Source: Nemertoderma westbladi
Lineage: Eukaryota > Animalia > Xenacoelomorpha
Direction: 5' to 3'
Assembly: GCA_032718475.1 (NCBI GenBank)
Contig: JAUCBJ010006072.1
Location: 1-33,405, forward strand
DNA length: 33,405 bases
Shown: piece after piece, positions 1 through 27,169 of the stretch
How the letters are laid out: each line of letters starts with the position of its first letter
Position numbering within the stretch: position 1 is the stretch's first letter
Program-made: the position numbers and the translations under genes
Notes under the pieces: generated by a model
Seen by the model: only the letters and a program-made list of their open reading frames with translations
The model's database searches: none
Told to the model about the DNA's origin: nothing

Positions 1-2147
1 GTTTCGAGCGCCTCGTGCGCGTTTTGGCCGATGAGTATTTGCACTCCAGGATAATCTGTCTGGAATCGAGGTATCTTAAGATATTGGATGCTCTCATCTT
101 CGTCCCAATTATAAAGGTCTGCTTGAGTAGTAGCAAAGTTCTTTATAGCCACCATTTTTACTGACCTTATACCTTGTGTTCCTAACTTATCCTGGGGGGT
201 GGACAACACACCTACATAGTAATCTGCCGTTAGGGTAGCTTTCCAAACCTGCATAATTCCTGACATATTCAATTTAGTCCGGAACTTGGGTTGTCCAGCA
301 AAGATATCTTCGGCTAGTTCTTGATCGATGAATGTTCCTGTGCTGCCGGAGTCAAGGAGGGCGTTCACTATGTAGCTTTTGTTAAGACCGTGAACTCTTA
401 CTTGAACTACAGGAAATTCTCTGATTCCTACATTGGAAGCTGGAGCTTTCCAAGATGGTTGTTTGGCGAAAGTAGTTGGGGGAAACTCATCGTTGATGTC
501 CTTTTCGTAAGTAAGTGCTCGATACACTGCGGTATTGATTAGATAACAGGATTCGTTGGCGTCGGAGAATTCGTCAGTATAGAATCCTTCCATCTCAGAT
601 TCTTGATCAGTGTCGTTTACATCACTGAATTGGACATGTAGTTCGGGCTCACTTACCTGACTCAGTTTGTCTCGTTCGAACTCACTGTGTAACAAGATGT
701 GATGTTTCGCGCCACACTTTGCACACTTTGCGTCGGAGTAACAGGTTCGCCGTTGGTGTCCGGATCTGAGGCAATTATAGCATAACCGCTTATTCCACAG
801 GACTGTACGTCTGTCTACAAGGGATTTCTTTAGAAATTCAGCACACGCACTCAAACGGTGGGGCCCGTCGCACAGCGCACATTTTGGTTTGATGTTACTC
901 ACCTTAACTTGGTTAACGTTATGCACTCTCGTTCTTTCTTCGGGCTTTCTTCCGTGAATTCTCTTAGGAGACGTAGGAGGAGTTGTTGTTACCTGTTCTC
1001 TCCTGTCACTGGTTCGAGACTTGTATTTACTTACGTCTTTATAGGTCTTGTTGTCATAGTAAGATTTTGCTGTGTCTTTCCCGCTGTCCTCTTCTTGAGA
1101 AGCTTGGCTTTCGCCGTCGTCAGTATAACACACTGGTATTATCCTTCTCCTAGAAACGGGTTTCTCACTTACCTTATTTTCCGATGTTTTCTCTCTGGAC
1201 TGCCTTATGAGTTGTAATTTTACTTCACTATCTAAGAAGGACATGAGATCAGCCATGGTAGGACTTCGTCGTTGTTGTTCATTCATGTACAACACTTTCT
1301 TGTCCCAGCGTGTACATACTCCACCCTTTGGTAAAGTAGAGACTACGGCTCCAATAACCATGGAACTCTGATATTCATGCGACTTACCTAACCAGTCCAG
1401 TTGTCTACAGATCTCTTGAATCTCATCGGAAAACTCTATAATCCCGCTACTAAGGAAGTGTTGGGGGGCTACTAATTTTGCATACAAATACTTAGCTATG
1501 TTATCCTTGTTACCATACCTGATGTTTAATGTATCCCAAACTTGTCTTAATCCATCTGGATGTCCAATAAACTTTAACGCCATTAACTTGGGAGGTCCTT
1601 CCAAGCACTTGATGAGGAATCTAAGTTTCTCTCCGTTAGATAGTACAGAGTTCTGTATGCTATCTTTGTAATATTCGTTGAAAGGTAACCATTTCATCTC
1701 ATCTCCATTGAATTTGACGATCTCTCCCACTTTGACCGCTTGGCGGGCTTCTGTTCTAGCCATCTGACGCGTAAAGCTTTCTTGGGCCATCGTGTTATTT
1801 AATATCGAATTATCGGTATATAAAGTTCTCGGATCATTATCAGGTCTATAGGGAATATCATTAATAACAGGTCTATAATCACCCTTAATAGGGTTTGCTA
1901 TAGGAGTTTCAACTTCACTAGCAGTATAGATGCGTGTAGGCTCCACACCTTGCGCATGTATTACTTCAGACCTAACAGGTTGACACAATGTTACAGGGGG
2001 TATTGGTATGCCGTTTTGTATATTGACTAATTTGTCGCGTTCTAGCGCGATACTTTGCTGCACTTCTTGCAACTCTGCTCTACCTTCCCTCACTGTTCCC
2101 TTAAGTTGGTGGACAGTCTCCTGCATCTGTCCTAGCAGGAGATTCAT
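1..2147 (-). mobile_element. BEL/Pao LTR retrotransposon gag-protease polyprotein segment (continues beyond window start)
   Basis: Hand translation in one frame from ATG 2147 gives a DUF1759-type gag core (KFNGDEMKWLPFNEYYKDSIHNSVLSNGEKLRFLIKCLEG...VWDTLNIRYG, from ~1720). It then gives three BEL-type zinc knuckles (CALCDGPHRLSAC, CYNCLRSGHQRRTC, CKCGAKHHILLH, ~690-880), the protease motif VNALLDSGSTGTFID (~325-368) and ILIGQN near the edge. It is absent from the ORF track, consistent with no stop before the edge. Confidence 0.92.
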
Positions 2148-3747
2148 CCCCCACCGTCCGCTCTTCCACCCACTCAACCGCCGAAGCGGGAGTCGCCAAC
2201 ATAGTAGCGGGCTGACGCGGGACGACGGGAGACAAATTTTTGATTTCTCTCTCTGCTATCTGGACAGGGATATTCTCTTGGACTGTTCCACCGGGTACAG
2301 GCAGTGTAGTACTATGCAAAGGGAATTTAGAGTTAAGCTCTGGAAGTACAGGGGTCTCTAACACAGAAGTGACTTTGGGAACGACAGGCCTAATTATTTC
2401 AGGCTCATCAACTATTGTAGGGAGTCTTGTGACCTGAATAATTTGTTCTGTGGGTTCTATACTACTCAAGTCTGTGCTAGCTAGCTGTCTTCTAACAGCT
2501 GGGGGCAAATCAGGCAATTTGTGACGGTGAGATGTTTTTCTACGCCTGCTTAGACGAGATCTATTTCCTCCGCCTTCAGGATCGGTGGTCTCGCCTTCCT
2601 CCGAGGATGTGTATCCCTGGCGCTTGGGAGTAGATTTTCTCATCATCTGCATTTGATTAGCAGTAAACTGTTTATTTATACTGTCTTGCGTCTCTTGCAG
2701 ATTTTCCAACTCCAGTTGGATAGTCTCCTCAGAAGCTCTCCTTTCTGCTTCCGCCACTGCTGCTTTTCTTTCTGCTTCTGCTTCTGCCGCCTTTCTTTCG
2801 GCTTCTGCTTCTGCCGCCTTTCTTTCGGCTTCTGCTTCTGCCGCCTTTCTTTCGGCTTCTGCTTCTGCCGACTTTCTTTCGGCTTCTGCTTCTGCCGACT
2901 TTCTTTCGGCTTCTGCTTCTGCCGCCTTTCTTTCGGCTTCTGCTTCTGCCGCCGCTGCTGCTGCCACCTTTCTTTTCTCTATCATCCGTTCTTTCTTTAC
3001 TTGTTCTTCTTGGACTCTAACGAGGCGGAGTTTTTCATCACATTCAGCTTGGTTTGCAGCTAACATTTCGGCATCGATTGAGTCCAACACAAGCTTGGTT
3101 CCTTCACTATTAGGGGAAAGTCCAGACAGCCGTCTCCTCAACTCTTCGTCTCCTAGGAATCGCTGATAGTCGGACAAATAAATGTCGATAGCGTCTCTAG
3201 TTCGCGGCTTCTCTGCTGCTGTTAATTCGCTTTCCACTTCGCTTTCCACCTCGCTTTCCACTTCGCTTTCCACCTCACTTTCCACTTCGCTTTCCACCTC
3301 ACTTTCCACTTCGCTTTCCACCTCACTTTCCACTTGAGAAGAAGTGGCGTCGGTTGATTCTTCATAGGTTGGCCGCTCATCATAAACCGTATCCGCCATC
3401 TTCGCTCCGCGTTCTGGCGTCCGCTCAACAGTATCCGAACTACTGGAGCTATCGGGCCGCTGAGAACCAGGTTCTTGGCTAGGAGGTTGCTGCTGTTTTA
3501 TAGCTTCTTCTTGATCCCGCTTGACTTGGGCCCGAGTGCCTATGGCAGACCAACGGCGCTTCACTAACTTCGCAAATTGCGAAATCTTTTCTACCAACCT
3601 AGGTTCTGACACAACCACTGCAGGGGTTGCCCTTCTTACAGTATGAGGGGTTTCAGACCTCGGTCTGGGATTCTCTACACTTTGATCTGAGAAACAGGCT
3701 GTTGTTTCTAGGAGACTATCTGACAGAGTTTGCCTTGTGTCAGCCAT
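2101..3747 (-). CDS. N-terminal low-complexity/coiled-coil ORF of the BEL/Pao element (548 aa), out of frame with downstream gag
   Basis: ORF track; acidic ESEV and AEAEAERK repeats; overlaps the gag-pro frame by 47 nt; same strand and directly upstream of the gag core. Confidence 0.75.
   Translation of the reverse strand: MADTRQTLSDSLLETTACFSDQSVENPRPRSETPHTVRRATPAVVVSEPRLVEKISQFAKLVKRRWSAIGTRAQVKRDQEEAIKQQQPPSQEPGSQRPDSSSSSDTVERTPERGAKMADTVYDERPTYEESTDATSSQVESEVESEVESEVESEVESEVESEVESEVESEVESELTAAEKPRTRDAIDIYLSDYQRFLGDEELRRRLSGLSPNSEGTKLVLDSIDAEMLAANQAECDEKLRLVRVQEEQVKKERMIEKRKVAAAAAAEAEAERKAAEAEAERKSAEAEAERKSAEAEAERKAAEAEAERKAAEAEAERKAAEAEAERKAAVAEAERRASEETIQLELENLQETQDSINKQFTANQMQMMRKSTPKRQGYTSSEEGETTDPEGGGNRSRLSRRRKTSHRHKLPDLPPAVRRQLASTDLSSIEPTEQIIQVTRLPTIVDEPEIIRPVVPKVTSVLETPVLPELNSKFPLHSTTLPVPGGTVQENIPVQIAEREIKNLSPVVPRQPATMLATPASAVEWVEERTVGDESPARTDAGDCPPT
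2736..2951 (-). repeat. Coding 27-bp tandem repeat, (AAEAEAERK) x ~8
   Basis: Unit ttctttcggcttctgcttctgccgcct repeated; visible in translation. Confidence 0.95.
3226..3333 (-). repeat. Coding 12-bp tandem repeat, (ESEV) x 9
   Basis: Unit ttcgctttccac/ctcactttccac; visible in translation. Confidence 0.95.
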
Positions 3748-3884
3748 GTTTGATTGTACAGTTGAATGTCTACTGCTATATTACAGTTAAAGCAAGTCTA
3801 GTAATTCAGTATCACTGTTAGCCTAATAATTAATTACCGATACTGCTACTCAGTGTAGCGTGATATATATATAATATATTAGAA

Positions 3885-8520: not shown

Positions 8521-9072
8521 ATTCAATACAAAAGTTCTAAAATACCATAATCGTAGAAAAACATTGAATTTGCGTGTTTAATTAAAACATGAATCTTAAA
8601 AAATGGCTTTAAATGCATCCATACATTATATGCTATTAGTTTGAACTGTCAAAATGCTATCACAATATTGCAATTTTAGAGTTAAGATATGGAAATACAA
8701 AGTTATAATCACTTCTGCCTTATCCTTCATCAAATTAACCAAGCATAATAACCTCCTCAGCCTGCGGCATAAGTAATTATACAGGTTATATGCTGCTGGA
8801 AGGGCATCTGTGATTATTTTGTTTTATTCGCTTCAGGTTATTATTTCCGTATATTAGCTCTAGAACACTGCAATATTCTATTTATAAAGCGTAGAGAATC
8901 ATATATACATAGAGTAATGAAATATTGGAGACATATTTTAGACAGCGCACTACAATTACTCAACAATAAAATTACGGTAGACCTATAGTATATAATTTCG
9001 AATGTACTGATCCATTGTCATATTTACAGTAACTGCAGGAGTAAGCTCTCTCTCCTGTGAATACCATTGTGT

Positions 9073-9093
9073 TTATAAGATGGCACAACATCT
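9073..9093 (-). other. C-terminal CaaX box (R-C-C-A-I-L-stop)
   Basis: CAIL fits the CaaL geranylgeranyltransferase-I consensus; the adjacent Cys is a candidate palmitoylation site; basic RKASR precedes it. Confidence 0.8.
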
Positions 9094-12000
9094 ACTTGCT
9101 TTCCGAAATGCGATTCCTTCAGCTTGAGCTTCGCCATAGCCAAATATTGCTTCATTCTGAAGATCTATTTGATCGGATAGTTGCATCATACTCTTTTTGT
9201 CAAAACATCCTAGTTCATCAGTTTCTAGATGCATTTTAATGTTTTGAACGAGCTGAGTAACTCTCACATCATTGTCTAAGTTATTATGTTTATTATAGTT
9301 ACCATGGCTTCCATGAGTTGTAAATGAGTTACAAAACTCCATAAAGACGGTACCGGAGAATGGTATAGCCAATTCTCCTTTAGGGGGCCAACCAGCATTA
9401 CTGCAACAGGTCTTCTGACTCTCAAATAATAATGGCATTATTTTCTTTTTTCTTTCAAAAGCCAATTGGCCTTCAGTAACACAATATCTCGATGTTAGAT
9501 ATCCTTTACTAATACAAGGTATGAACACTTTACAATTTGAGATACCTTCATCGATTCGTCCAAACAGCTTATCTCCACCTCCCATCTGCCCAATGTCCAT
9601 CCAACAAGTAATACCTTGTTTCTCCAACTGTTCTTTCAGCTGTTTTACATTTTCTTGAATCTTCCAATTATAACTTAAAAATATCTCCTTGGTACTATCT
9701 CTAGTTTTGATTTTCCTCTCCTGTGGTTCAGATGGTATTGGACGTTCCTGCGGTACCCATTGCCTAAATTTATGAGTACTCACACGGTTATGTCCACATA
9801 ACATAACCTTCTTTTCTAATGATTCTTCCATGTCTAAGAAATGAATACATTCCATTTCAGGGCAGTGTTCTACTTTGTGGAATTCACACTCGGTTTCACA
9901 AGGACATGCAACAGCTGTCATGTATGATATATTTTTAACCCATAGATGCTTGAAATCATTTAGAGTTGACTCTATAAAGTGTCTTACAGCAGCAAAAGCT
10001 TCAGGTTTTGGAGTCTTTCCTTTATTTACAGATATTTCTCCATCATCGCTTATGACACTAACTCGAACTATACTAACCTTGATTCTAGCCAGTCGAATAG
10101 GTGCCATTTCAAGAATACAATCATGTTCATCATCTATATAAAACCGAACTACTCTGTGATATAGTTTTGGTTCAGAGCTGCCTTGATCTTGGGACCATTT
10201 AACAGCCCTCACTGACAATCTATTAAATAAACCATCCGGGAGGAATCCATCAAATATTATGTGGAAAATAATATCACTTTCGGAGTGAGGAATAAAAATC
10301 TTTTTGTTTGGAACTTTCATCCTGGCTGGAATGTAAAATGATCTGTATGGTAAAATACTTTTTTGTTTCGGTGGCAATTTCTCACACATTAGATCAAACT
10401 TTTCCATCAATGCAATTAAAGTTGATTTTTGTGAGATTATGGAGTTCCACATATGATCCAGTAATGGTTCATCTAGAATACCATTATCGTCTAGATTCTC
10501 CCAATATGGTCTCAGTGCTACCCACTCATTGTCGATATCAGCTATCGTTATGATCTTTTTAAACACATCTATCAGCCACTGTGGATTGAGTATTACAGTA
10601 TTTCTCAAACTGTCATCAGTTGCACCCAAACCTCCATAATAAATTATGGTTCCCAAATCATGGTAAAAATTCAGCATTGTCAAGAATGTAGTATCTGATG
10701 TAATTCCAACTTTGTTTGCAATATCACGGACTTTATCAATATTCGCAAAATTTTGATAATGTATTTTCTGTATGGCATTTTCAAATTTTAACCAAAGCAG
10801 GGGCATTAACTCTCCCATGTACTGCTGCTGTTTGGATATATCCTGAATATGTTGTCTAAGTTTGATAACTTCTTGGTCTGATCCATTTTCTATGTGATTC
10901 TCCACTGCATAACACTCATTCACAAGATGCATTGCATATGACTTCCTCGCAATCATTTCTTTAATTAATTTGAACTTCTGTCTTGCCATTTTATTTTGCT
11001 CCTCCGGGCTAGAATGCAAACTAGCTCTATGAGTTCCTACAATGAATATTGGAGGTGTTTCAACATATTTATCCTTACCAATACATTTCCGTTGTTTTCC
11101 AGTCTGCTTTGAAGTGAAAGCATAAATTGATTTCATCCAAAAGTCGATAAAATCAATATTTCGCATCTCATGATGCACAAATTGACTATCTGGATCATCA
11201 TCAGTGCCACAAGGTCCTCTTCGTTGAAGTGTTTGAGCTGGGGCTTCTAGGTCATCCGTTAGATTGAACACTATCACATACACTGCCCTGTATGTTAGGA
11301 AAACCTGGTGTGTTGCATAATACACTGATTGCCCAGCAAAGTCCCAAATACTTAGTGTAATTTTATCACTTTCTTCAGCCATTTCTGTATAAATATCGCT
11401 TTGTTGTTCCTGATCTAACATCTCAATCAGTAACTCTTTCACCCTGTCAGGTATATCAACACGACTGTCATATATATCTTCCTCTTTCACCTGACTTTCG
11501 ACCAATAATCTACTAATTTGTTGTGTAGATACTGGCCCATCATCTATTGCAATTGAAGATTCGCTTTCGCTTGATTGGATGTGTTCTTTTTCATGATTAT
11601 CTCCATACTGTATATCTTGATTTTCATCATTTTGTAAGCTACTTTTTGCATCTTCATTTATACTTGCTGAGGCAGTTTTCGAAACTCTACTTACTTTACT
11701 TAAAAATTCTTGTTTCTTTTTAATAATTTCCTTTGCAACTAAATATGCCAATCTTCTATTATACTCATCCTCTAGATTTGTTGTTTTATTATCTGCCTCC
11801 TTGGTGTTGTTTGATTGCCATGGCTGCCAGTCACTGACATCTATTTCGCAGTTATCATTTACAGTTATTCCATCTGTTGAAATCTCATTTGGATTAAACT
11901 TTTCACCCATTAGAGAATTCTTCAAACTTGTCTTGCCAGCCCTATCCTGTCCGACAAGCATTAGACGTGTTCTAAATATTGGTTTAGTTCCATTATTCAA

Positions 12001-15000
12001 TGCCAGTTTAAAAGCATTGATAGCATCTGGACCCCTTGCTAAGATTTCGGCCGGCAACTCATCTTTTACATTCGATTTGAGTCGCCCTTCTGCAGCTAAT
12101 AATGATTCAGTCATGTTTTTAAACATTTCTTGTATATTTATGTTACTTTTTGCACTTGTTTCCAAGTATTTCATGTTAAACTTTTTTGCCATTTTCATTC
12201 CAGAGTTTGTAGAAATTTTACGGGTATTTTTGAGATCGCATTTATTTGCAATCAGAAATAATTTTACATGCGGATTTATATGTGGTTGTATGTCATCAAA
12301 CCATTTAGTGACACTGTCAAATGTTTCTCCTTGTGTGACATCATACACAATAAATATACCATTAGCACTTCTATAGTAGGATGCTGACAAAGCTCTGTAC
12401 CTCTCAGCCCCAGCAGTATCCCATATCTGAAGTTTGGTAGTACATCCATTTATATCTAAGACTTTAGCCTTTAATTCTATACCAATTGTTGATTTATATT
12501 CATCCACAAATTCGTCAGTAATAAACTGATGCAATAAACTACTCTTTCCACTCTCTGAATTTCCAACAAGAACAAGTTTTAAAATTGTATTGATAACTTC
12601 TACAGGATAAAATACTTCGACAGATTTCCCATCGTCATGATCTCTTGATAACCATCTATTAACCTCGAAAGTAACATTAGTATTCCTATAAATGTCTCGT
12701 ATGTTTACGGCTTGTAAGTACCACGATTTAGCTTTTATGCCGTTGTATTCATTTGTTACTATTACATTAAGTATTTCCTCTCCTAGATCGATTGATTGTA
12801 TGTTGAATGTCTGCTTGCTTCCTTTACTGAATGTCTGTTGTAGTTGAAATCGCCCTGACATTGCCTTGCTTCCCATTATTTCAAACCAAACAGTCGAATC
12901 TGTTCCAGCATTTTGTATACTCCCTGTTTCAACCTGGATTGCATATGGAATTGTATGCTCTGCTGCTTCTAGAATACTTTCAATTTTGTCGGCAATCCCT
13001 TTGACGCCATTTTCCCAGCTGTCGATTAGTTTATCAGTTAACGTCAGTGTTGCTGATTGCCTGCCAAGAAGGAGTTCACCTATCCAATCTGGCTGCTTAT
13101 AGGCATCAATTGGTATCGATTTATCCTGTACAGAGTGCTGAATCATGGCATGCAGAGCAATAACATAATTACCTGTTTGTAAAGCAAATTTTGTAAATAT
13201 TTCACACCAATTTATGAGGGTTGATTTTATTTGATTATTTGCGAGGTTTATTCCTTTTCCATATGATTTATTGTTATTTGGTGTGATCATAACTATTACA
13301 GGTTGGCAGATTTTCCCCACTTTGTGACCCATCCATTTCATCATCCAGTCGCCCATCAATTTATATTCCTCACTTTTTTTATCAATATTAACATCAGATG
13401 CCAGAATTGCTATGGATATTCCATATTTCTCTAGACTTTTTCCTAATTTGTTGACAATTGCAGCATCTTTTGTGCTGCATATTACATTGACACTCTTGTT
13501 CATTTTGTTTAGAGTAACTTCTTTATCTTTGGTTGGATTTGTCCTTCTGATATTTTCAACTATTTGTTTACTATCTGTCGTTTTTTGTAATAATGATAAA
13601 ATGGATGATTTTTTTGGCTCGTCTGCAGTTAAAGATCCAGCAAACTCTGGGAACTGATGTCCTAATTCCACCTCATTGAATTCTTCATTTAAACTCTCAT
13701 TTTGACTTTCAGCTTCATATTCGGCTGTTTTCTCAACACTAAAATCACTAATATTGTCATCGAAGCTTGCCCCTCTAAAATACCTAGGCATTCTTTCAAT
13801 TTGATCTCCAAACTTTTTTCTTTTATTAATTTTAGTTTCATTGTTTAGTTTTCTGAAATCTTCTTTTGAATGATTGTGTCTAGTTTGTAGTCCCACACCA
13901 ATGTTTCTGATTCCTTTACGGTCAGTATCAATGTTTCTATCTATACTGTCGATGCTTACATCACTAACATTATCATCAAAGCTTCCTCGTCTGTAGTATT
14001 GCCTGGCCTTAGCTGCTTCATGGTCATTTGATTCTTTCTTCCTATATGCCTTAATTTCGTCAATAAATGGCTGTCTCTCCTTTCGGATGGTTTCACGTTT
14101 TACCCTTTCTTCGTTTCTGTTTCTTTCTGTTCTTAGGATTTCTGCCTGCCTTTCCCTTTCCTCTATAAATCTATAATCACTGACAGGCGGACGATACGTC
14201 ACTTCTTGTTTACCTTTATTTCTTCTATGAGCTTTAGATCCGTCACCTTCTGTTTCTATTGTGTTTATTTTATCTTTAAATAAACTCTCACTCTGGTTGA
14301 TTTCAATATCTTCATTGTCCATTCCTTCATGTGTCCTTTTATGGTCCATATTGTATTGCTTTGAAATTGATGCTTGAGTGGCAACGTTCTCACTGATTTC
14401 ACTTTTATTTCCCCCAGCCATTCCTTTTCCGTTAGCTTGTTTGATTGGATTTAGTAGCTGAGGGAATGGGTCAGGTGTCTCATCTATCTTTGAATGTCCG
14501 ACCCACTCGCCATTTTCCACTTCCCATTCTATTGGTCCTGATGAAAATGAATATGACGTTTTAGACTGTTGATGTTTTGGTTGTGATGCTGAATCTGCAG
14601 CTGAAGATTCAGTTTGGTATGATCCAACATGGGCCGAATAAGTTTGGTGTGAACCAACATGGGCTGGTTGAGCTTGCTGAGAACCAACATGGGCTGATTG
14701 AGTTTGGTGTGAACCAACATGGGCTGGTTGAGTTTGCTGTGAACCAACATGGGCTGGTTGAGCTTGCTGAGAACCAACATGGGCTGATTGAGTTTGGTGT
14801 GAACCAACATGGGCTGGTTGAGTTTGCTGTGAACCAACATGGGCTGATTGAGTTTGGTGTGAACCAACATGGGCTGGTTGAGTTTGCTGTGAACCAACAT
14901 AGGCTGATTGAGTTTGCTGTGAACCAACATGGGCTGATTGAGTTTGCTGTGAACCAACATGGGCTGATTGAGTTTGCTGGGCATAGGGAGCATTCTCAGA

Positions 15001-15072
15001 AACAATTTCAAAGGACTTTTTTGATTTTTTAGATTTTGTCTTGCCCTTTTTGAGTTGTTCTGTTAATCCCAT
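9073..15072 (-). CDS. Single-exon 1999-aa Roco-family protein: TIR-like / PLAT / Rab / Roc / COR / TIR / CaaX
   Basis: Uninterrupted 6-kb ORF with an in-frame TAA two codons upstream of the ATG. Two sets of small-GTPase motifs, COR signatures (MGELMPLLWLKFE, LNFYHDLGTIIYY, LNPQWLIDVFKKII, LPDGLFNRL), a TIR, and C-terminal RCCAIL. A possible AATAAA lies at 8823-8828 on the minus strand. Confidence 0.95.
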   Translation of the reverse strand: MGLTEQLKKGKTKSKKSKKSFEIVSENAPYAQQTQSAHVGSQQTQSAHVGSQQTQSAYVGSQQTQPAHVGSHQTQSAHVGSQQTQPAHVGSHQTQSAHVGSQQAQPAHVGSQQTQPAHVGSHQTQSAHVGSQQAQPAHVGSHQTYSAHVGSYQTESSAADSASQPKHQQSKTSYSFSSGPIEWEVENGEWVGHSKIDETPDPFPQLLNPIKQANGKGMAGGNKSEISENVATQASISKQYNMDHKRTHEGMDNEDIEINQSESLFKDKINTIETEGDGSKAHRRNKGKQEVTYRPPVSDYRFIEERERQAEILRTERNRNEERVKRETIRKERQPFIDEIKAYRKKESNDHEAAKARQYYRRGSFDDNVSDVSIDSIDRNIDTDRKGIRNIGVGLQTRHNHSKEDFRKLNNETKINKRKKFGDQIERMPRYFRGASFDDNISDFSVEKTAEYEAESQNESLNEEFNEVELGHQFPEFAGSLTADEPKKSSILSLLQKTTDSKQIVENIRRTNPTKDKEVTLNKMNKSVNVICSTKDAAIVNKLGKSLEKYGISIAILASDVNIDKKSEEYKLMGDWMMKWMGHKVGKICQPVIVMITPNNNKSYGKGINLANNQIKSTLINWCEIFTKFALQTGNYVIALHAMIQHSVQDKSIPIDAYKQPDWIGELLLGRQSATLTLTDKLIDSWENGVKGIADKIESILEAAEHTIPYAIQVETGSIQNAGTDSTVWFEIMGSKAMSGRFQLQQTFSKGSKQTFNIQSIDLGEEILNVIVTNEYNGIKAKSWYLQAVNIRDIYRNTNVTFEVNRWLSRDHDDGKSVEVFYPVEVINTILKLVLVGNSESGKSSLLHQFITDEFVDEYKSTIGIELKAKVLDINGCTTKLQIWDTAGAERYRALSASYYRSANGIFIVYDVTQGETFDSVTKWFDDIQPHINPHVKLFLIANKCDLKNTRKISTNSGMKMAKKFNMKYLETSAKSNINIQEMFKNMTESLLAAEGRLKSNVKDELPAEILARGPDAINAFKLALNNGTKPIFRTRLMLVGQDRAGKTSLKNSLMGEKFNPNEISTDGITVNDNCEIDVSDWQPWQSNNTKEADNKTTNLEDEYNRRLAYLVAKEIIKKKQEFLSKVSRVSKTASASINEDAKSSLQNDENQDIQYGDNHEKEHIQSSESESSIAIDDGPVSTQQISRLLVESQVKEEDIYDSRVDIPDRVKELLIEMLDQEQQSDIYTEMAEESDKITLSIWDFAGQSVYYATHQVFLTYRAVYVIVFNLTDDLEAPAQTLQRRGPCGTDDDPDSQFVHHEMRNIDFIDFWMKSIYAFTSKQTGKQRKCIGKDKYVETPPIFIVGTHRASLHSSPEEQNKMARQKFKLIKEMIARKSYAMHLVNECYAVENHIENGSDQEVIKLRQHIQDISKQQQYMGELMPLLWLKFENAIQKIHYQNFANIDKVRDIANKVGITSDTTFLTMLNFYHDLGTIIYYGGLGATDDSLRNTVILNPQWLIDVFKKIITIADIDNEWVALRPYWENLDDNGILDEPLLDHMWNSIISQKSTLIALMEKFDLMCEKLPPKQKSILPYRSFYIPARMKVPNKKIFIPHSESDIIFHIIFDGFLPDGLFNRLSVRAVKWSQDQGSSEPKLYHRVVRFYIDDEHDCILEMAPIRLARIKVSIVRVSVISDDGEISVNKGKTPKPEAFAAVRHFIESTLNDFKHLWVKNISYMTAVACPCETECEFHKVEHCPEMECIHFLDMEESLEKKVMLCGHNRVSTHKFRQWVPQERPIPSEPQERKIKTRDSTKEIFLSYNWKIQENVKQLKEQLEKQGITCWMDIGQMGGGDKLFGRIDEGISNCKVFIPCISKGYLTSRYCVTEGQLAFERKKKIMPLLFESQKTCCSNAGWPPKGELAIPFSGTVFMEFCNSFTTHGSHGNYNKHNNLDNDVRVTQLVQNIKMHLETDELGCFDKKSMMQLSDQIDLQNEAIFGYGEAQAEGIAFRKASRCCAIL
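9230..9687 (-). other. C-terminal TIR domain (TIR_2-like), from aa ~1796
   Basis: EIFLSYNW...VKQLKEQLEKQGITCWMDIGQMGGGDKLFGRIDEGISNCKVFIPCISKGYLTSRYCVTEGQLAFERKKKIMPL; Glu1867 at 9472-9474. End boundary approximate. Confidence 0.92.
9900..10818 (-). other. COR (C-terminal of Roc) domain
   Basis: MGELMPLLWLKFE start, FYHDLGTIIY, VILNPQWLIDVF, FYIPARM, FLPDGLFNRL; directly follows Roc. Confidence 0.88.
10830..11975 (-). other. Roc GTPase domain with a long insertion between switch I and G3
   Basis: RLMLVGQDRAGKTSL (P-loop 11926-11952), ISTDGI, IWDFAGQSVYYATHQVFLT (W at 11344-11346), IFIVGTHRA, YAVEN. Confidence 0.92.
12097..12582 (-). other. Embedded Rab-family GTPase domain (Rab1/Rab8-like motifs), aa ~831-992
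   Basis: GNSESGKS, YKSTIGIEL (RabF1-like), KLQIW (RabF2) DTAGAE, RYRALS (RabF3-like), YYRSA (RabF4-like), IVYDVT (RabF5), NKCD, ETSAK. Confidence 0.95.
12604..12945 (-). other. PLAT/LH2 domain, aa ~710-823
   Basis: YAIQVETGSIQNAGTDSTVWFEIMG...FSKGSKQTF...DLGE...WYLQAVNIRD...FEVNRWLSRDHDDG matches the PLAT pattern. Confidence 0.92.
12970..13494 (-). other. Degenerate TIR-like domain, aa ~527-701
   Basis: SVNVICSTKDAAIVNKLGKSLEKYGISIAI aligns by eye to TIR betaA-alphaA-betaB; CQPVIVMITPNNNKS to betaC; NWCEIFTKFALQTGNYVIAL to the WCxxE helix and betaD; PDWIGELLLGR and WENGVKGIADKI to the C-terminal part. Confidence 0.65.
14621..14980 (-). repeat. Coding 30-bp minisatellite x 12 (QQTQSAHVGS-type decapeptide)
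   Basis: gaaccaacatgggctgattgagtttgctgt-type units at exact 30-bp spacing, unit starts 14621 to 14951. Confidence 0.97.
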
Positions 15073-18030: not shown

Positions 18031-18960
18031 TTATCTGTATGTATATCCACTACCAATAGTATAAATTACATGAATTACTTTTGAAATTTGGTTGGCAAGG
18101 CGCTCTTGATTTGTGTAAATGAAGGCCTCAGGTAATCTCCGTAACTGTTCATAAGATTTCTCCCCCATCAGTTGAATTATCCGAAGATTTCTGCGAGGTT
18201 TCGGGCATTCCATGACTGATCTGCGTTCTTCCTTATCAATCACACCCTTTTCCTGGAGTTGATAAAGTAAAACGCGATTGGTAATCATTTTATCTAGTAA
18301 CACGGGTCTTAGAACTGTAAGTATCTTAACTGGGAAGCTCATTGACTCTGGTGCGTATCGAATAACATGTCTGATACGGATCTCGATATCGTCGACAGAC
18401 GGCATCAATTGCATCAACCAACTACTCGGATCTGGTTCCACTCTTTCGGGTGGTAGCCCGGTGGATGGTTGCTCTACCAACTGTGGTAGCCCGGTGGTGG
18501 ATGGTCCCCCTACCAACTGTGGTAGCACGGTGAAGTTCTTCCCTAGTGGGTGATCTCCTCCATTCCTGTTCGGATCATTTACAAGAATACAATTCAATTG
18601 AGTTCGGTCTATGTCGATTTGGTTGAGTGCATCACAGAATTTAACAACACCGTTATCGTTATTAAACTCAATGTAGTAACTAAAGGAGTACGTATTTTCT
18701 ATTTTTACACAAAAAGGGAAGCCCATAAATTCATCCTCACCTGTGATTATTGAAGTAATGGTTTCAGACTCCGGAAAGAATTCCACAATGGTTCCTTTAT
18801 TTGTCGTTTTCATTTGATTCCAACATAGCGACATTCGACTTTTGATGTTTCCGCCTTCAAAAGTAATCCTCAATGGCTGATCAATATCGATAACTACCTT
18901 TAACAAATCATTTAGAGCTACAATACATTTCGCTGTATCCGAAAGGGTATGGGAGGCCAT
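18031..18960 (-). CDS. Intronless 309-aa protein with C-terminal CARD (death fold) and unassigned N-terminal globular domain
   Basis: ATG at 18960 in a strong Kozak context (aacaccATGG); the track's TTG start is unlikely. KILTVLRPVLLDKM...LLYQLQEKGVIDKEERRSV...RNLRIIQLMGEKSYEQLRRLPEAFIYTNQERLANQI (~18085-18327) follows the CARD helix pattern. Pro-rich duplicated linker at ~18450-18530. Confidence 0.78.
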   Translation of the reverse strand: MASHTLSDTAKCIVALNDLLKVVIDIDQPLRITFEGGNIKSRMSLCWNQMKTTNKGTIVEFFPESETITSIITGEDEFMGFPFCVKIENTYSFSYYIEFNNDNGVVKFCDALNQIDIDRTQLNCILVNDPNRNGGDHPLGKNFTVLPQLVGGPSTTGLPQLVEQPSTGLPPERVEPDPSSWLMQLMPSVDDIEIRIRHVIRYAPESMSFPVKILTVLRPVLLDKMITNRVLLYQLQEKGVIDKEERRSVMECPKPRRNLRIIQLMGEKSYEQLRRLPEAFIYTNQERLANQISKVIHVIYTIGSGYTYR

Positions 18961-19200
18961 GGTGTTGATAAGGTCCAAATGAATTACAATAACTCAAAAC
19001 TAACTTCAGTAACCAACGGCACCTTCATTTAAAATGTTACTTATATTTAATTTTTAGTGGTCTAAAATGTAAAATGTTTCTAATTATTCAAATATAATTA
19101 TTATCACAATTAATATAAGGGTAAAACTAACAAGCTATCAACAATCAATAATTACAAAACATTCTAGAACAATTGCATCTAAATTTCCATGTTCATGTTA

Positions 19201-21419: not shown

Positions 21420-22900
21420 AGGTCTCCCATGAGATGTAAACTCTCTTAGGTCTCCCACGAGATGTACACTCTCTTAGGTCTCCCACGAGATGTACACTCT
21501 CTCAGGTCTCAAACGAGATGTACACTCTCTCAGGTCTCCCACGAGATGTACACTCTCTCAGGTCTCCCACAAGATGTACACTCTCTCAGTTCTCCACAAG
21601 ATGTACACTCTCTTAGGTCTCCCCGAGATGTACACTCTCTCAGGTCTCCCACGAGATGTACACTCTCTCAGGTCTCCCCGAGATGTACACTCTCTTAGGT
21701 CTCCCACGAGATGTACACTCTCTCAGGTCTCAAACGAGATGTACACTCTCTCAGGTCTCCCACGAGATGTACACTCTCTCAGGTCTCCCGAGATGTGCAT
21801 TCTCTTAGGTCTCCCACGAGATGTACACTCTCTCAGGTCTCAAGCGAGATGTACACTCTCTCAGGTCTCCCACGAGATGTACACTCTCTCAGGTCTCCCG
21901 GGAGATGTACACTCTCTCAGTTCTCCACAAGATGTACACTCTCTCAGGTCTCCCACGAGATGTAAACTCTCTTAGGTCTCCCACGAGATGTACACTCTCT
22001 CAGGTCTCCCACGAGATGTACACTCTCTCAGGTCTCCTAGAGATGTACACTCTCTCAGGTCTCCCCGAGATGAACACTCTCTCAGGTCTCCCCGAGATGT
22101 AAACTCTCTCAGGTCTCCAAAGAGATGTACACTCTCTCAGGTCTCCCACGAGATGTACACTCTCTCAGGTCTCCCCGAGATGTAAACTCTCTCAGGTCTC
22201 CCACGAGATGTACACTCTCTCAGGTCTCCCACGAGATGTACACTCTCTCAGGACTCTCACGTGATGTAAACTCTCTCAGGTCTCCCACGAGATGTAAACT
22301 CTCTTAGGTCTCCCACGAGATGTACACTCTCTCAGGTCTCCCCGAGATGTACACTCTCTTAGGTCTCCCACGAGATGTACACTCTCTCAGGTCTCCCCGA
22401 GATGTACGCTCTCTCAGGTCTCCCACGAGATGTACACTCTCTCAGGTCTCCCCGAGATGTACACTCTCTCAGGTCTCCCACGAGATGTACAATCTCTCAG
22501 GCCTACCACGAGATGTAAACTCTCTCAGGTCTCCCACGAGATGTACACTCTCTCAGGTCTCCCCGAGATGTACACTCTCTCAGGTGTCCCCGAGATGTAA
22601 ACTCTCTCAGGTCTCCCCGAGATGTAAACTCTCTCAGGTCTCCCACGAGATGTACACTCTCTCAGGTCTCCCACGAGATGTACACTCTCTCAGGTCTCCC
22701 ACAAGATGTAAACTCTCTCAGGTCTTCAACGAGATGTACACTCTCTCAGGTCTCCCACGTGATGTAGATTCTCAGGTCTCCCACGAGATGTACACTCTCT
22801 CTGGTCTCCCATGAGATGTACACTCTCTCAGGTCTCCCACGAGATGTAAACTCTCTCAGGTCTCCCACGAGATGTACACGAGATTCTCAGGTCTCTCAAG
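21420..22900. repeat. 28-bp (27-bp variants) tandem array, about 53 units
   Basis: Consensus gagatgtacactctctcaggtctcccac; no unique spacers. Confidence 0.97.
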
Positions 22901-23118: not shown

Positions 23119-24322
23119 ATTATTGTTTTTCTAGTGCAAAAAACTATAAAATGATCGATTAGGTTAATTAAAGTTTAGACGTGTAAAATATATTATATAA
23201 AATATAACTGTTCGAATGTCCTTTTGTGTGGAGATCCACCAGAGTGTTTTTTATTTTTTGAGAATCGAAAAAATACTATCACCGGTAAAATAAATCGAGA
23301 AGGTCCCGTTTCAAAACAACAAACCAAATTTTACGACATAGGTGACAATTGTGGCGGCCTTGTAACCAAAACAATAAACTAAAAGAAGACATTGCAATTC
23401 CATATACTTCGGATGTAATTTTTATGGGTGAAATTTTTATTTTAACATTATTGGATTATCTTCTTCTGAAACAGCACAAGTAAAGTGGAGAAGCGTGGAG
23501 CTCATATTTGGGACATTTTAAGAAGAATGTGGAAGGCAGATTCGAGCCCTGACACAAAGGTGATCTAAATGTAGAATATTGTATAAAAATTAGTTCTCAG
23601 CTAAGGTTGATCAGAGAATAACAATAATGCTGGGTGAACTGGTTATAGTTTGTAAAATATTCACTTTAAAAGGCGACCCAAACACCACAAATTAAGGGGA
23701 ATTTATATGAAGTTAATTTGAATGGTTGCTACCATCAGAACTGAAACAACCGCCCCAATGGGGTGATCCGCCAAACTAGACGTCGTTGCCTCAACCGTTG
23801 TTGCTGGTGGCTCAATTCCTTCTTGCAAACGTCTTCATTGGCAATAGGCACGCACTCACCCAGCATCTTTCTCTCCTGCTGTACAACAAAGCTTTGGCGG
23901 ACACGCTGTTAATATGCATTATTCCTGGTAATTGCAGGAATAGCAGCTTGCAGGCGGAACAATCCGTTTGAATTTCACCTGGGTGTTCCTCGTACCAATC
24001 CGAATCCGGGAACACATCGGGGCGGGCTGACTTGTAAGTAACCATTGTGTGTTTGTCATTGCAAGCAACCGCTAACACATTGTCAAAATTATCTGTAACT
24101 ATAGAAACCGCAATCAATAGCATTTTCGCCAACTTGACATCCATGTTACATGTGGACCCAAATTTCAAAATGTCGATAATCAGTATAGGCCTATAGCCTT
24201 CAGTTTACCTTATTTGTATATTATTGTTTTAATACCCTATTTACATAGAAATGGTTGACGCGGTGCAACCATATAGGTCTATATTAGTTTCGGAACGTGA
24301 TTTTAATCATTTCTACTTTATC
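23119..24322. repeat. Local segmental duplication copy A (partner 25755-27169)
   Basis: Near-identical from attattgtttttcta to ttctactttatc, apart from a 214-bp deletion and small indels. Confidence 0.96.
23703..24144 (-). pseudogene. Disrupted paralog of the Ly6/uPAR-like gene
   Basis: Same N-terminus as 26335-26991; 1-bp loss in a C run (cacccagc vs caccccagc, ~23860) and a 214-bp deletion at ~23813; premature stop at 23812. Confidence 0.88.
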
Positions 24323-25754: not shown

Positions 25755-27169
25755 ATTATTGTTTTTCTATTGCAAAAAAACTATAAAATGATCGATTAGA
25801 TTAATTAAAGTTTAGACGGGTAAAATATATTATATATAACTGTTCGAATGTCCTTTTGTGTGGAGATCCACCAGAGTGTTTTTTATTTTTTGAGAATCGA
25901 AAAAATACTATCACCGGTAAAATAATTCGAGAAGGTCCCGTTTCAAAACAACAAACCAAATTTTACGACATTGGTGACAGTTGTGGCGGCCTTGTAACCA
26001 AAACAATAAACTAAAAGAAGTCATTGCAATTCAATATACTTCGGATGTAATTTTTATGGGTGAAATTTTTATTTTAACATTATTTGATTATCTTCTTCTG
26101 AAACAGCACAAGTAAAGTGGAGAAGCGTGGAGCTCATATTTGGGACCTTTTAAGAAGAATGTGGAAGGCAGATTCGAGCCCTGACATAAAGGTGATCTAA
26201 ATGTAGAATATTGTATAAAAATTAGTTCTCAGCTAAGGTTGATCAGAGAATAACAATAATGCTGGGTGAACTGGTTATAGTTTGTAAAATATTCACTTTA
26301 AAAGGCGACCCAAACACCACAAATTAATGGGAATTTATATGAAGTTAATTTGAATGGTTGCTACCATCAGAACTGAAACAACCGCCCCAATGGGGTGATC
26401 CGCCAAACTAGACGTCGTTGCCTCAACCGTTGTTGCTGGTGGCTCTGTCTCTGTGGTAACCGAAACTGTTGTTGTGGCAACCGGATCAAACAAGGGATCG
26501 CTCCAATCCACAGTTCCATTGGGGTACAGGTAGTCGTGTTCCCACACCAAGTCTCCTACTTTGCTGCAGACTTCTGTTCCGTTGCAACACACAGACTGGC
26601 AACTTGGATGTGACAGATCAGCAGAGAAAGCTTCTCCATCTATGCGAAAGTTATCGCTCAATTCCTTCTTGCAAACGTCTTCATTGGCAATAGGCACGCA
26701 CTCACCCCAGCATCTTTCTCTCCTGCTGTACAACAAAGCTTTGGCGGACACGCTGTTAATATGCATTATTCCTGGTAATTGCAGGAATAGCAGCTTGCAG
26801 GCGGAACAATCCGTTTGAATTTCACCTGGGTGTTCCTCGTACCAATCCGAATCCGGGAACACATCGGGGCGGGCTGACTTGTAAGTAACCATTGTGTGTT
26901 TGTCATTGCAAGCAACCGCTAACACATTGTCGAAATTATCTGTAACTATAGAAACCGCAATCAATAGCATTTTCGCCAACTTGACATCCATGTTACATGT
27001 GGACCCAAATTTCAAAATGTCGATAATCAGTATAGGCCTATAGCCTTCAGTTTACCTTATTTGTATATTATTGTTTTAATACCCTATTTACATAGAAATG
27101 GTTGACGCGGTGCAACCATATAGGTCTATATTAGTTTCGGAACGTGATTTTAATCATTTCTACTTTATC
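25755..27169. repeat. Local segmental duplication copy B (intact)
   Basis: Partner of 23119-24322. Confidence 0.96.
26335..26991 (-). CDS. Intronless 218-aa secreted 10-Cys Ly6/uPAR (three-finger)-like protein with Thr-rich stalk and probable GPI signal
   Basis: ATG 26991 (gtaacATGG); hydrophobic N-terminus MDVKLAKMLLIAVSIV; 10 Cys ending CQSVCCNGTEVC; two NGT sequons; TTTVSVTTETEPPATTVEATTSS stalk; hydrophobic tail IGAVVSVLMVATIQINFI with no cytoplasmic part. Confidence 0.7.
   Translation of the reverse strand: MDVKLAKMLLIAVSIVTDNFDNVLAVACNDKHTMVTYKSARPDVFPDSDWYEEHPGEIQTDCSACKLLFLQLPGIMHINSVSAKALLYSRRERCWGECVPIANEDVCKKELSDNFRIDGEAFSADLSHPSCQSVCCNGTEVCSKVGDLVWEHDYLYPNGTVDWSDPLFDPVATTTVSVTTETEPPATTVEATTSSLADHPIGAVVSVLMVATIQINFI

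Follow-up and report, generated by a model that had tools for sequence, protein, structure and literature searches.

A diverged Rab domain embedded in a Roc-COR-TIR protein of Nemertoderma westbladi

Background

Plant nucleotide-binding leucine-rich repeat receptors (NLRs) may contain integrated decoys, domains that copy host proteins targeted by pathogens. Among the closest known systems to the animal protein described here is a bilaterian family with the domain order NHR-Roc-COR-Death-TIR-CaaX (the 'neuralized PATS1' family, for example Saccoglossus P0011; also the MyD88-like Roco protein of Aplysia, PMC9334734). Roco proteins have been proposed as immune receptors in Aplysia (PMC9334734) and in brown algae (PMC11378527), and AP-GTPase/COR proteins occur in conflict systems (PMC8195603), all of these being proposals rather than tests. 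Rab GTPases are targets of effectors (PMC5902227), and a marine Vibrio effector is reported to bind and cleave 24 Rabs, chosen by structure rather than sequence (PMC10153396). The gene considered here lies in a stretch of 33,405 bp (the window; contig JAUCBJ010006072.1, assembly GCA_032718475.1) of the xenacoelomorph Nemertoderma westbladi, and encodes a Roc-COR-TIR protein with a diverged Rab G-domain fused in front of Roc. An original prediction, made from the sequence alone, had drawn attention to an alanine in place of the switch-II glutamine of this Rab domain; the weight of the finding rests on the fusion, on the fact that two copies retain it and on a parallel in a clam, and not on the alanine.

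The name 'Neuralized PATS1' is also the annotation label of a clam transcript that was down-regulated on infection with QPX (a table row of PMC4769524), which was not taken as support.

Architecture of the Roco protein

The protein (Table 1) consists, in order, of repeats, a TIR-like region, PLAT, Rab, Roc, COR, TIR and a CCAIL end. Roc is followed by COR, with both Pfam matches (Roc and COR-A) above their cut-offs, as in Roco proteins, and Pfam domains and alignment agree with the original prediction that a Rab is embedded in a Roc-COR-TIR protein. A search with the Roc-COR-TIR part gave 392 matches, of which the best 120 were listed. The Roc-COR is homologous to that of the NHR-Roc-COR-Death-TIR-CaaX family (E 1e-239), and the Roc motifs GQDRAGKT, STDG, WDFAGQ and GTHR are the same as in aligned relatives. 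In a tree of 28 chosen relatives it fell within a 22-row group (support 94/99; the group was not starred) that comprises this family together with echinoderm Roco proteins bearing Macro, RIG-I-like, ankyrin or CARD/FN3 domains, and the rows nearest to it are members of the family.

Alignment with 19 family members placed the Rab domain in the position of the NHR domain, for which no PF07177 match was found in the window protein; the Rab ends at the PAEILARGP boundary, exactly where NHR ends in these relatives. Between COR and TIR there is no PF00531 (Death) match, and the same alignment has a clean gap there. Related Roc-COR proteins carry Macro, RIG-I-like helicase, GT4, KH, ankyrin, FN3/CARD, kinase or NACHT domains; because such varied domains occupy the N-terminal slot, it is swappable. 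Glu1867 of the TIR domain (9472-9474, in YCVTE) is common to 19 of 19 aligned relatives, and we take it to be the catalytic glutamate after strand C. The CaaX end is present in 48 of 50 proteins of the family. Its domain order is new for a Roco family that is otherwise known, and the protein does not fully belong to that family. Among 263 fetched proteins (from searches limited by length and to top matches) there was no orthologue sharing the whole domain order, and searches of the open-access literature listed no description of a Rab-Roc-COR-TIR fusion.

The TIR-like region is a lead only: it gave no Pfam TIR match, an hhalign probability of 0.12 and no significant profile match, and the glutamate is absent from its usual place in a weak alignment. 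A single-sequence model of the TIR-like, PLAT and Rab regions reached a predicted local distance difference test (pLDDT) value of 35.8, with about 35 for the TIR-like region.

Table 1. Features of the Roco gene and its product in the window
Feature	Position	Strand	Evidence
Roco protein, uninterrupted open reading frame (ORF) without introns, 1999 aa from first Met	9073..15072	minus	ORF reading
12.5 copies of a 30-bp unit, a 10-aa Gln/Ser/His/Gly-rich repeat	14606..14979	minus	TRF
TIR-like region (lead only)	12970..13500	minus	Atlas feature matches 0.83-0.86, mostly TIR clusters
PLAT/LH2 domain	12622..12945	minus	Pfam PF01477, E 8e-12
Rab G-domain, diverged, without own prenylated tail	12100..12579	minus	Pfam (Ras), PDB comparison, alignment, fold model
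Ala889 codon (GCT) in place of switch-II Gln	12406-12408	minus	Codon reading, contigs of runs X1-X4
Family boundary PAEILARGP and Roc GTPase with acidic insert	10840..12063	minus	Pfam Roc above cut-off; alignment
COR-A and COR-B	9862..10803	minus	PF16095, E 4e-18; PF25497, E 0.0013, below its cut-off; alignment
TIR domain, immediately after COR	9415..9684	minus	Pfam PF13676 (TIR_2), E 8e-22; alignment
C-terminal CCAIL, CaaX-type motif	9076..9090	minus	Sequence reading

Residues of the Rab domain

The Rab domain was compared with free Rabs (the best 120 of 1050 matches). Residue 889 (numbered from the first Met at 15072) is an alanine within WDTAGAERY, at a column where 119 of the 120 free Rabs have glutamine and none has alanine. 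G1 reads GNSESGKS, which fits GxxxxGKS yet is atypical in that Glu840 and Ser841, at the positions of Ras G13 and V14, occur in none of the 120. Thr862 of G2, NKCD of G4 and ETSAK of G5 are kept, so the description of G1, G2, G4 and G5 as intact stands for all but G1. Leu867 replaces the triad Phe of IGVDF/IGVEF, which is invariant in 120/120 free Rabs (Leu in 0/120); the triad residues W884 and Y899 are kept. The RabF motifs are altered from ITS to LSA and from RG to RS.

Of 55 columns with a conservation of at least 95%, the domain departs from the consensus at 15 (including G840E, V841S, R849Q, F867L and Q889A); of 65 well-conserved columns it departs at 19, where the 120 free Rabs average 1.55 and reach at most 12. 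At the 24 columns that never vary among the free Rabs the domain keeps 22 residues, whereas it carries the majority residue at 17 of 81 variable columns (p 4e-10), and every nucleotide and magnesium contact checked (by Ras numbering) is retained. An alignment-driven model has a normal Rab fold (pLDDT 89), with template modelling scores up to 0.95 to Rab11/Rab1/8/10-type small GTPases. The domain has neither a hypervariable tail nor a cysteine prenylation motif of its own, and runs straight into Roc across a linker of about 12 residues. This is not a standard Rab; its core has been preserved while the surface that faces partners has changed.

Runs X1, X2 and X3 each yielded one contig over 11726-14512 (2787 bases) with 0, 0 and 1 differences from the window, spanning the Ala889 codon and the PLAT-Rab-Roc junctions; X2 and X3 are one sample. 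Run X4, from another sample and another study, matched 12202-12557, including the codon, with 0 differences. The codon shows no difference in contigs of 4 of 4 runs, which bears out the earlier judgement that the change from glutamine is unlikely to be a sequencing slip. The window is a single assembly of which X1-X3 may be the source, but with single contigs across all junctions in three runs, the agreement of X4 at the codon and another, diverged copy in the same domain order, a sequencing or assembly artefact has a negligible probability, and the alanine and the fusion are both real.

Significance of the lost glutamine

Among 66 Rab domains from 30 multi-domain proteins (mostly unnamed tandem Rabs, picked by score), 23 embedded or tandem domains lack the switch-II glutamine, against 1 of the 120 free Rabs. 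By this count the loss is nothing unusual in Rab domains that form part of larger proteins, and not the special feature for which it had been taken. The original prediction also held it as established that substitution of this glutamine lowers intrinsic hydrolysis. In the results of Langemeyer et al. (PMC3919270), its mutation altered basal hydrolysis of Rab1 and Rab35 by less than about 1.5-fold, and Rab5 alone lost basal hydrolysis; TBC-GAP-stimulated hydrolysis and DENND1/DrrA exchange were strongly cut in Rab1 and Rab35, and Rab35 Q67A was inactive, not dominant active. The TBC GTPase-activating proteins (GAPs) provide a glutamine in trans (PMC5902221). From the Rab1 and Rab35 mutants, therefore, locking in the GTP form by a change of Q to A is not established. 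In KRas, G13D opens the nucleotide pocket and gives intermediate GTP loading (PMC6709685); if the Rab domain is GTP-biased, G840E may by analogy be as important as Q889A. On the bait reading proposed below, the alanine would be one sign among others that the domain has left the ordinary Rab cycle, and not the mechanism; the fusion is the finding.

Another search match, P0173 (2322 aa), has several Ras-family domains, with alanine at the place of the glutamine in one Rab-like domain also, and weak matches to SidM_N/DUF294 nucleotidyltransferase-like domains, below or near the cut-off.

Origin of the Rab domain

Among the matches listed, no free Rab is more than 47% identical to the window Rab, which is 39% identical to fish Rab11, and the PDB scores of Sec4, Rab10, Rab1a, Rab8 and Rab11 lie within 7 bits of each other. 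The switch signatures KSTIG.E and RYRA are Rab11-like. The window Rab was placed on the Rab11 side (99/93) in a tree of 42 of the 120 Rabs and two other domains, and with Rab11 (89/80) in a tree of 23 of the 120; the trees sampled Rabs other than Rab2, Rab4 and Rab14, and its branch is long (1.8-2.4). The approximately unbiased (AU) test on the smaller set rejected none of the placements with Rab1 (p 0.138), Rab10 (p 0.102) or Rab8 (p 0.101). Signatures and trees thus lean to a Rab11-type donor, rather than the Rab1 class first suggested, which the AU test nevertheless does not reject.

A second copy and a parallel in a clam

Aligning run contigs at 80% likeness detected a second copy, as a 2394-base contig in X1-X3 and as pieces in X4, with the order TIR-like, PLAT, Rab and start of Roc as in the window. 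Between copies, Rab differs by 25% (72/287) and PLAT with strand 1 by 18%; Roc-COR variants, assumed to belong to the second copy, differ by 7-10%. Residues 848-879 (switch I and interswitch) of the second copy are too diverged to align. Read by hand, it retains Arg849 and has LFKVVLAG and RYTNNVF, which come closer to Rab11. With both forms present in 3 of 3 samples, a paralogue is likelier than an allele. Raised depth and loose contig ends at 11918-12056, in the Roc P-loop, point to further Roco genes in the organism.

All four indels between copies are multiples of 3 (p 0.012), third codon positions hold 17 of the 28 listed Rab differences (p 0.003), and in a hand count over 25 codons about 12.5 of 17 silent sites differ, against 15.5 of 58 replacement sites. 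Third-position divergence is 0.64-0.71 in Rab and 0.18 in Roc; conversion may have evened out the Roc-COR core. Both copies have thus preserved the reading frame of the Rab over a time in which silent sites came near to saturation. This, with the in-frame indels, the third-position bias and the kept invariant columns, argues against neutral decay, which had been named as an outcome that would overturn the prediction.

In the hard clam Mercenaria mercenaria, LOC123533811 (P0229) has the order Rab-Roc-COR-Death, and its switch II reads DTPGHE. Its Roc-COR lies on the opposite side of the tree from that of the window, on a long branch, and a separate Rab capture is likely. An Atlas search with P0229 matched only general Roc-COR-Death clusters.

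Possible functions

The Roco-TIR protein is likely an immune signaller. Our preferred reading, a tentative one, is that its nucleotide-binding Rab, uncoupled from regulators, would be a bait for microbial proteins that target Rabs. The Rab G-domain, whose likely source is Rab11, would have been captured into the swappable N-terminal slot, and the CaaX tail and PLAT would anchor the protein to membranes on which Rabs are encountered. This Rab would still bind guanine nucleotide but no longer cycle through guanine nucleotide exchange factors, GAPs and GDP dissociation inhibitor (Q889A, F867L, R849Q and the missing tail), while G840E, by loosening the pocket, would bias it towards GTP, which is abundant. 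Binding of a microbial Rab-targeting protein is predicted to switch Roc-COR so that a TIR output is assembled, in which the Glu-bearing TIR would cleave NAD+ or recruit adaptors. Directly seen are the domain order, the exact slot, the retained nucleotide-binding residues, the altered partner surface and the second in-frame copy. The embedded domain also resembles an integrated decoy in copying a host protein that pathogens target (PMC5902227, PMC10153396). With a shared partner surface that has changed, and not in the same way in the two copies, conserved host effectors are a poor match; microbial effectors or the protein's own core are left as candidate partners. Of the original interpretation, the varied domains that the slot holds in relatives and the constraint on the Rab are borne out, the claims on hydrolysis and the Rab1 class are not, and the decoy role is a candidate one.

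Several points weigh against a bait. In Rab1, the rate of exchange driven by DrrA fell from 6.0e4 to 5.3e3 /M/s with Q67A (PMC3919270), and LepB uses the cis-Gln (PMC5902221); towards some known effectors the changed Rab is therefore a less faithful mimic. That the Roco-TIR family has an immune role is itself no more than a suggestion (PMC9334734). Of the 263 fetched proteins, the clam protein alone combined Rab with Roc-COR. A 279-bp TIR-like stretch is likewise too diverged to align between copies, and only 28 of the 72 Rab differences were listed. The higher Rab divergence would also fit conversion of Roc-COR and is not proof of positive selection; at the sites visible between the copies selection is purifying rather than positive (replacement rate, dN, below silent rate, dS), switch I being too diverged to align.

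A rival that we consider unlikely, though it fares best of those weighed, is a built-in regulator that senses nothing foreign, the nucleotide-loaded Rab clamping or priming Roc-COR in cis like fused Rab29 on LRRK2. The short Rab-Roc linker and the kept core and nucleotide residues beside a drifting outward surface agree with it, as does the recruitment and activation of the Roco protein LRRK2 by GTP-Rabs (PMC6337361), but that binding uses N-terminal repeat domains of LRRK2 (PMC6337361) that are absent from the window protein, and relatives work with NHR or other unrelated domains in the slot. A complex prediction of Rab with Roc-COR, made without alignments, scored 0.00 and gave no answer. 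It is improbable that the Rab is a passenger, an in-frame spacer in neutral or near-neutral decay: the excess of changed conserved columns, the long branch and the frequency of glutamine loss in embedded Rabs would suit such decay, against which stand the kept invariant columns, the third-position bias and the silent-site excess of the hand count. About as improbable is the first option of the original prediction, a GTP-biased docking module that binds host Rab11-type effectors and places the receptor on recycling endosomes. The Rab11-like switch signatures, the kept W884 and Y899 and the opening of the Ras pocket by a G13-type change (PMC6709685) speak for docking; against it are the loss of the invariant triad Phe, the identity of only 39% to fish Rab11 and the switch and interswitch, the shared and most conserved partner site (PMC5902227), which is yet highly diverged between copies. 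By comparison, fish and plant share 76% identity in free Rab11, and a conserved host partner is unlikely because the switch region diverged between copies.

If the bait reading is true, the protein is an animal receptor of the decoy type in which Roc-COR, and not a STAND ATPase, is the switch, and it gives a direct handle on the role of the unstudied invertebrate Roco-TIR family. If the Rab instead regulates in cis, the protein is still a natural Rab-Roco fusion in which the control of Roco proteins such as LRRK2 by Rabs can be examined. A wider proposal, which we regard as doubtful, is that invertebrate Roco-TIR/Death proteins are an animal counterpart of NLRs with integrated decoys, Rabs having been captured into their sensor slot at least twice (in the window animal and the hard clam), with the glutamine lost each time, to detect microbial effectors attacking membrane traffic and to fire a TIR NADase.

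Other features of the window

Inside the Roco ORF, a contig of run X4 ends at 14233 in a loose end of 21 T. A minus-strand AATAAA at 14269 lies about 30 bases upstream of that end, which could mark an early poly(A) site yielding a short, repeat-only transcript, the run type being guessed and contigs being unable to show transcript ends. Just behind the gene, at 8803-8887, a short repeat element of very high depth lies beside a minus-strand AATAAA at 8828. A Bel/Pao-like retrotransposon gag-protease ORF (1-3780, minus strand; DUF1759, E 4e-12) runs off the window, with a low-complexity coiled-coil ORF upstream of it. Two copies of one ORF start (23812-24204 and 26335-27051, minus strand) are signal-peptide-like and Cys-rich, with no Pfam match; the longer ends in a Thr-rich stalk and a hydrophobic tail, like a glycosylphosphatidylinositol-anchored protein. 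An ORF of 320 aa at 18031-18993 (minus strand) has no significant Pfam match, and its C-terminal part looks CARD/death-fold-like by eye. A satellite of about 53 copies of 28-bp units occupies 21420-22879.

Comparison with known systems

Like plant NLRs with integrated decoys, the window protein has a host target domain inside an NTPase-switch protein with TIR output; its switch is Roc-COR and not NB-ARC, it lacks leucine-rich repeats, and recognition of an effector is a candidate function only. It shares with LRRK2 and Rab29 the coupling of a Roco protein to a Rab on membranes (PMC6337361), but here the Rab is fused in cis, and kinase, ARM, ANK and LRR domains are lacking. As in the clam P0229, a Rab stands directly before Roc-COR, the glutamine is lost (His in the clam) and the G13 position is changed; the clam protein has Death but no PLAT, TIR or CaaX, and the two Rabs are 30% identical. 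With Rab11 (and Rab1/8/10) the window Rab has in common the fold, the nucleotide contacts and, for Rab11, the switch signatures, and it differs from them in its low identity, in the substitutions Q889A, G840E, V841S, R849Q and F867L and in lacking a hypervariable tail and Cys motif of its own. The closest likeness is to the NHR-Roc-COR-Death-TIR-CaaX family, to which the window Roc-COR is up to 44% identical over 86% of residues 1000-1900, with shared Roc motifs, a TIR with its glutamate and a CaaX end, whereas in the window protein repeats, a TIR-like region, PLAT and Rab stand in place of NHR, and the Death domain is deleted.
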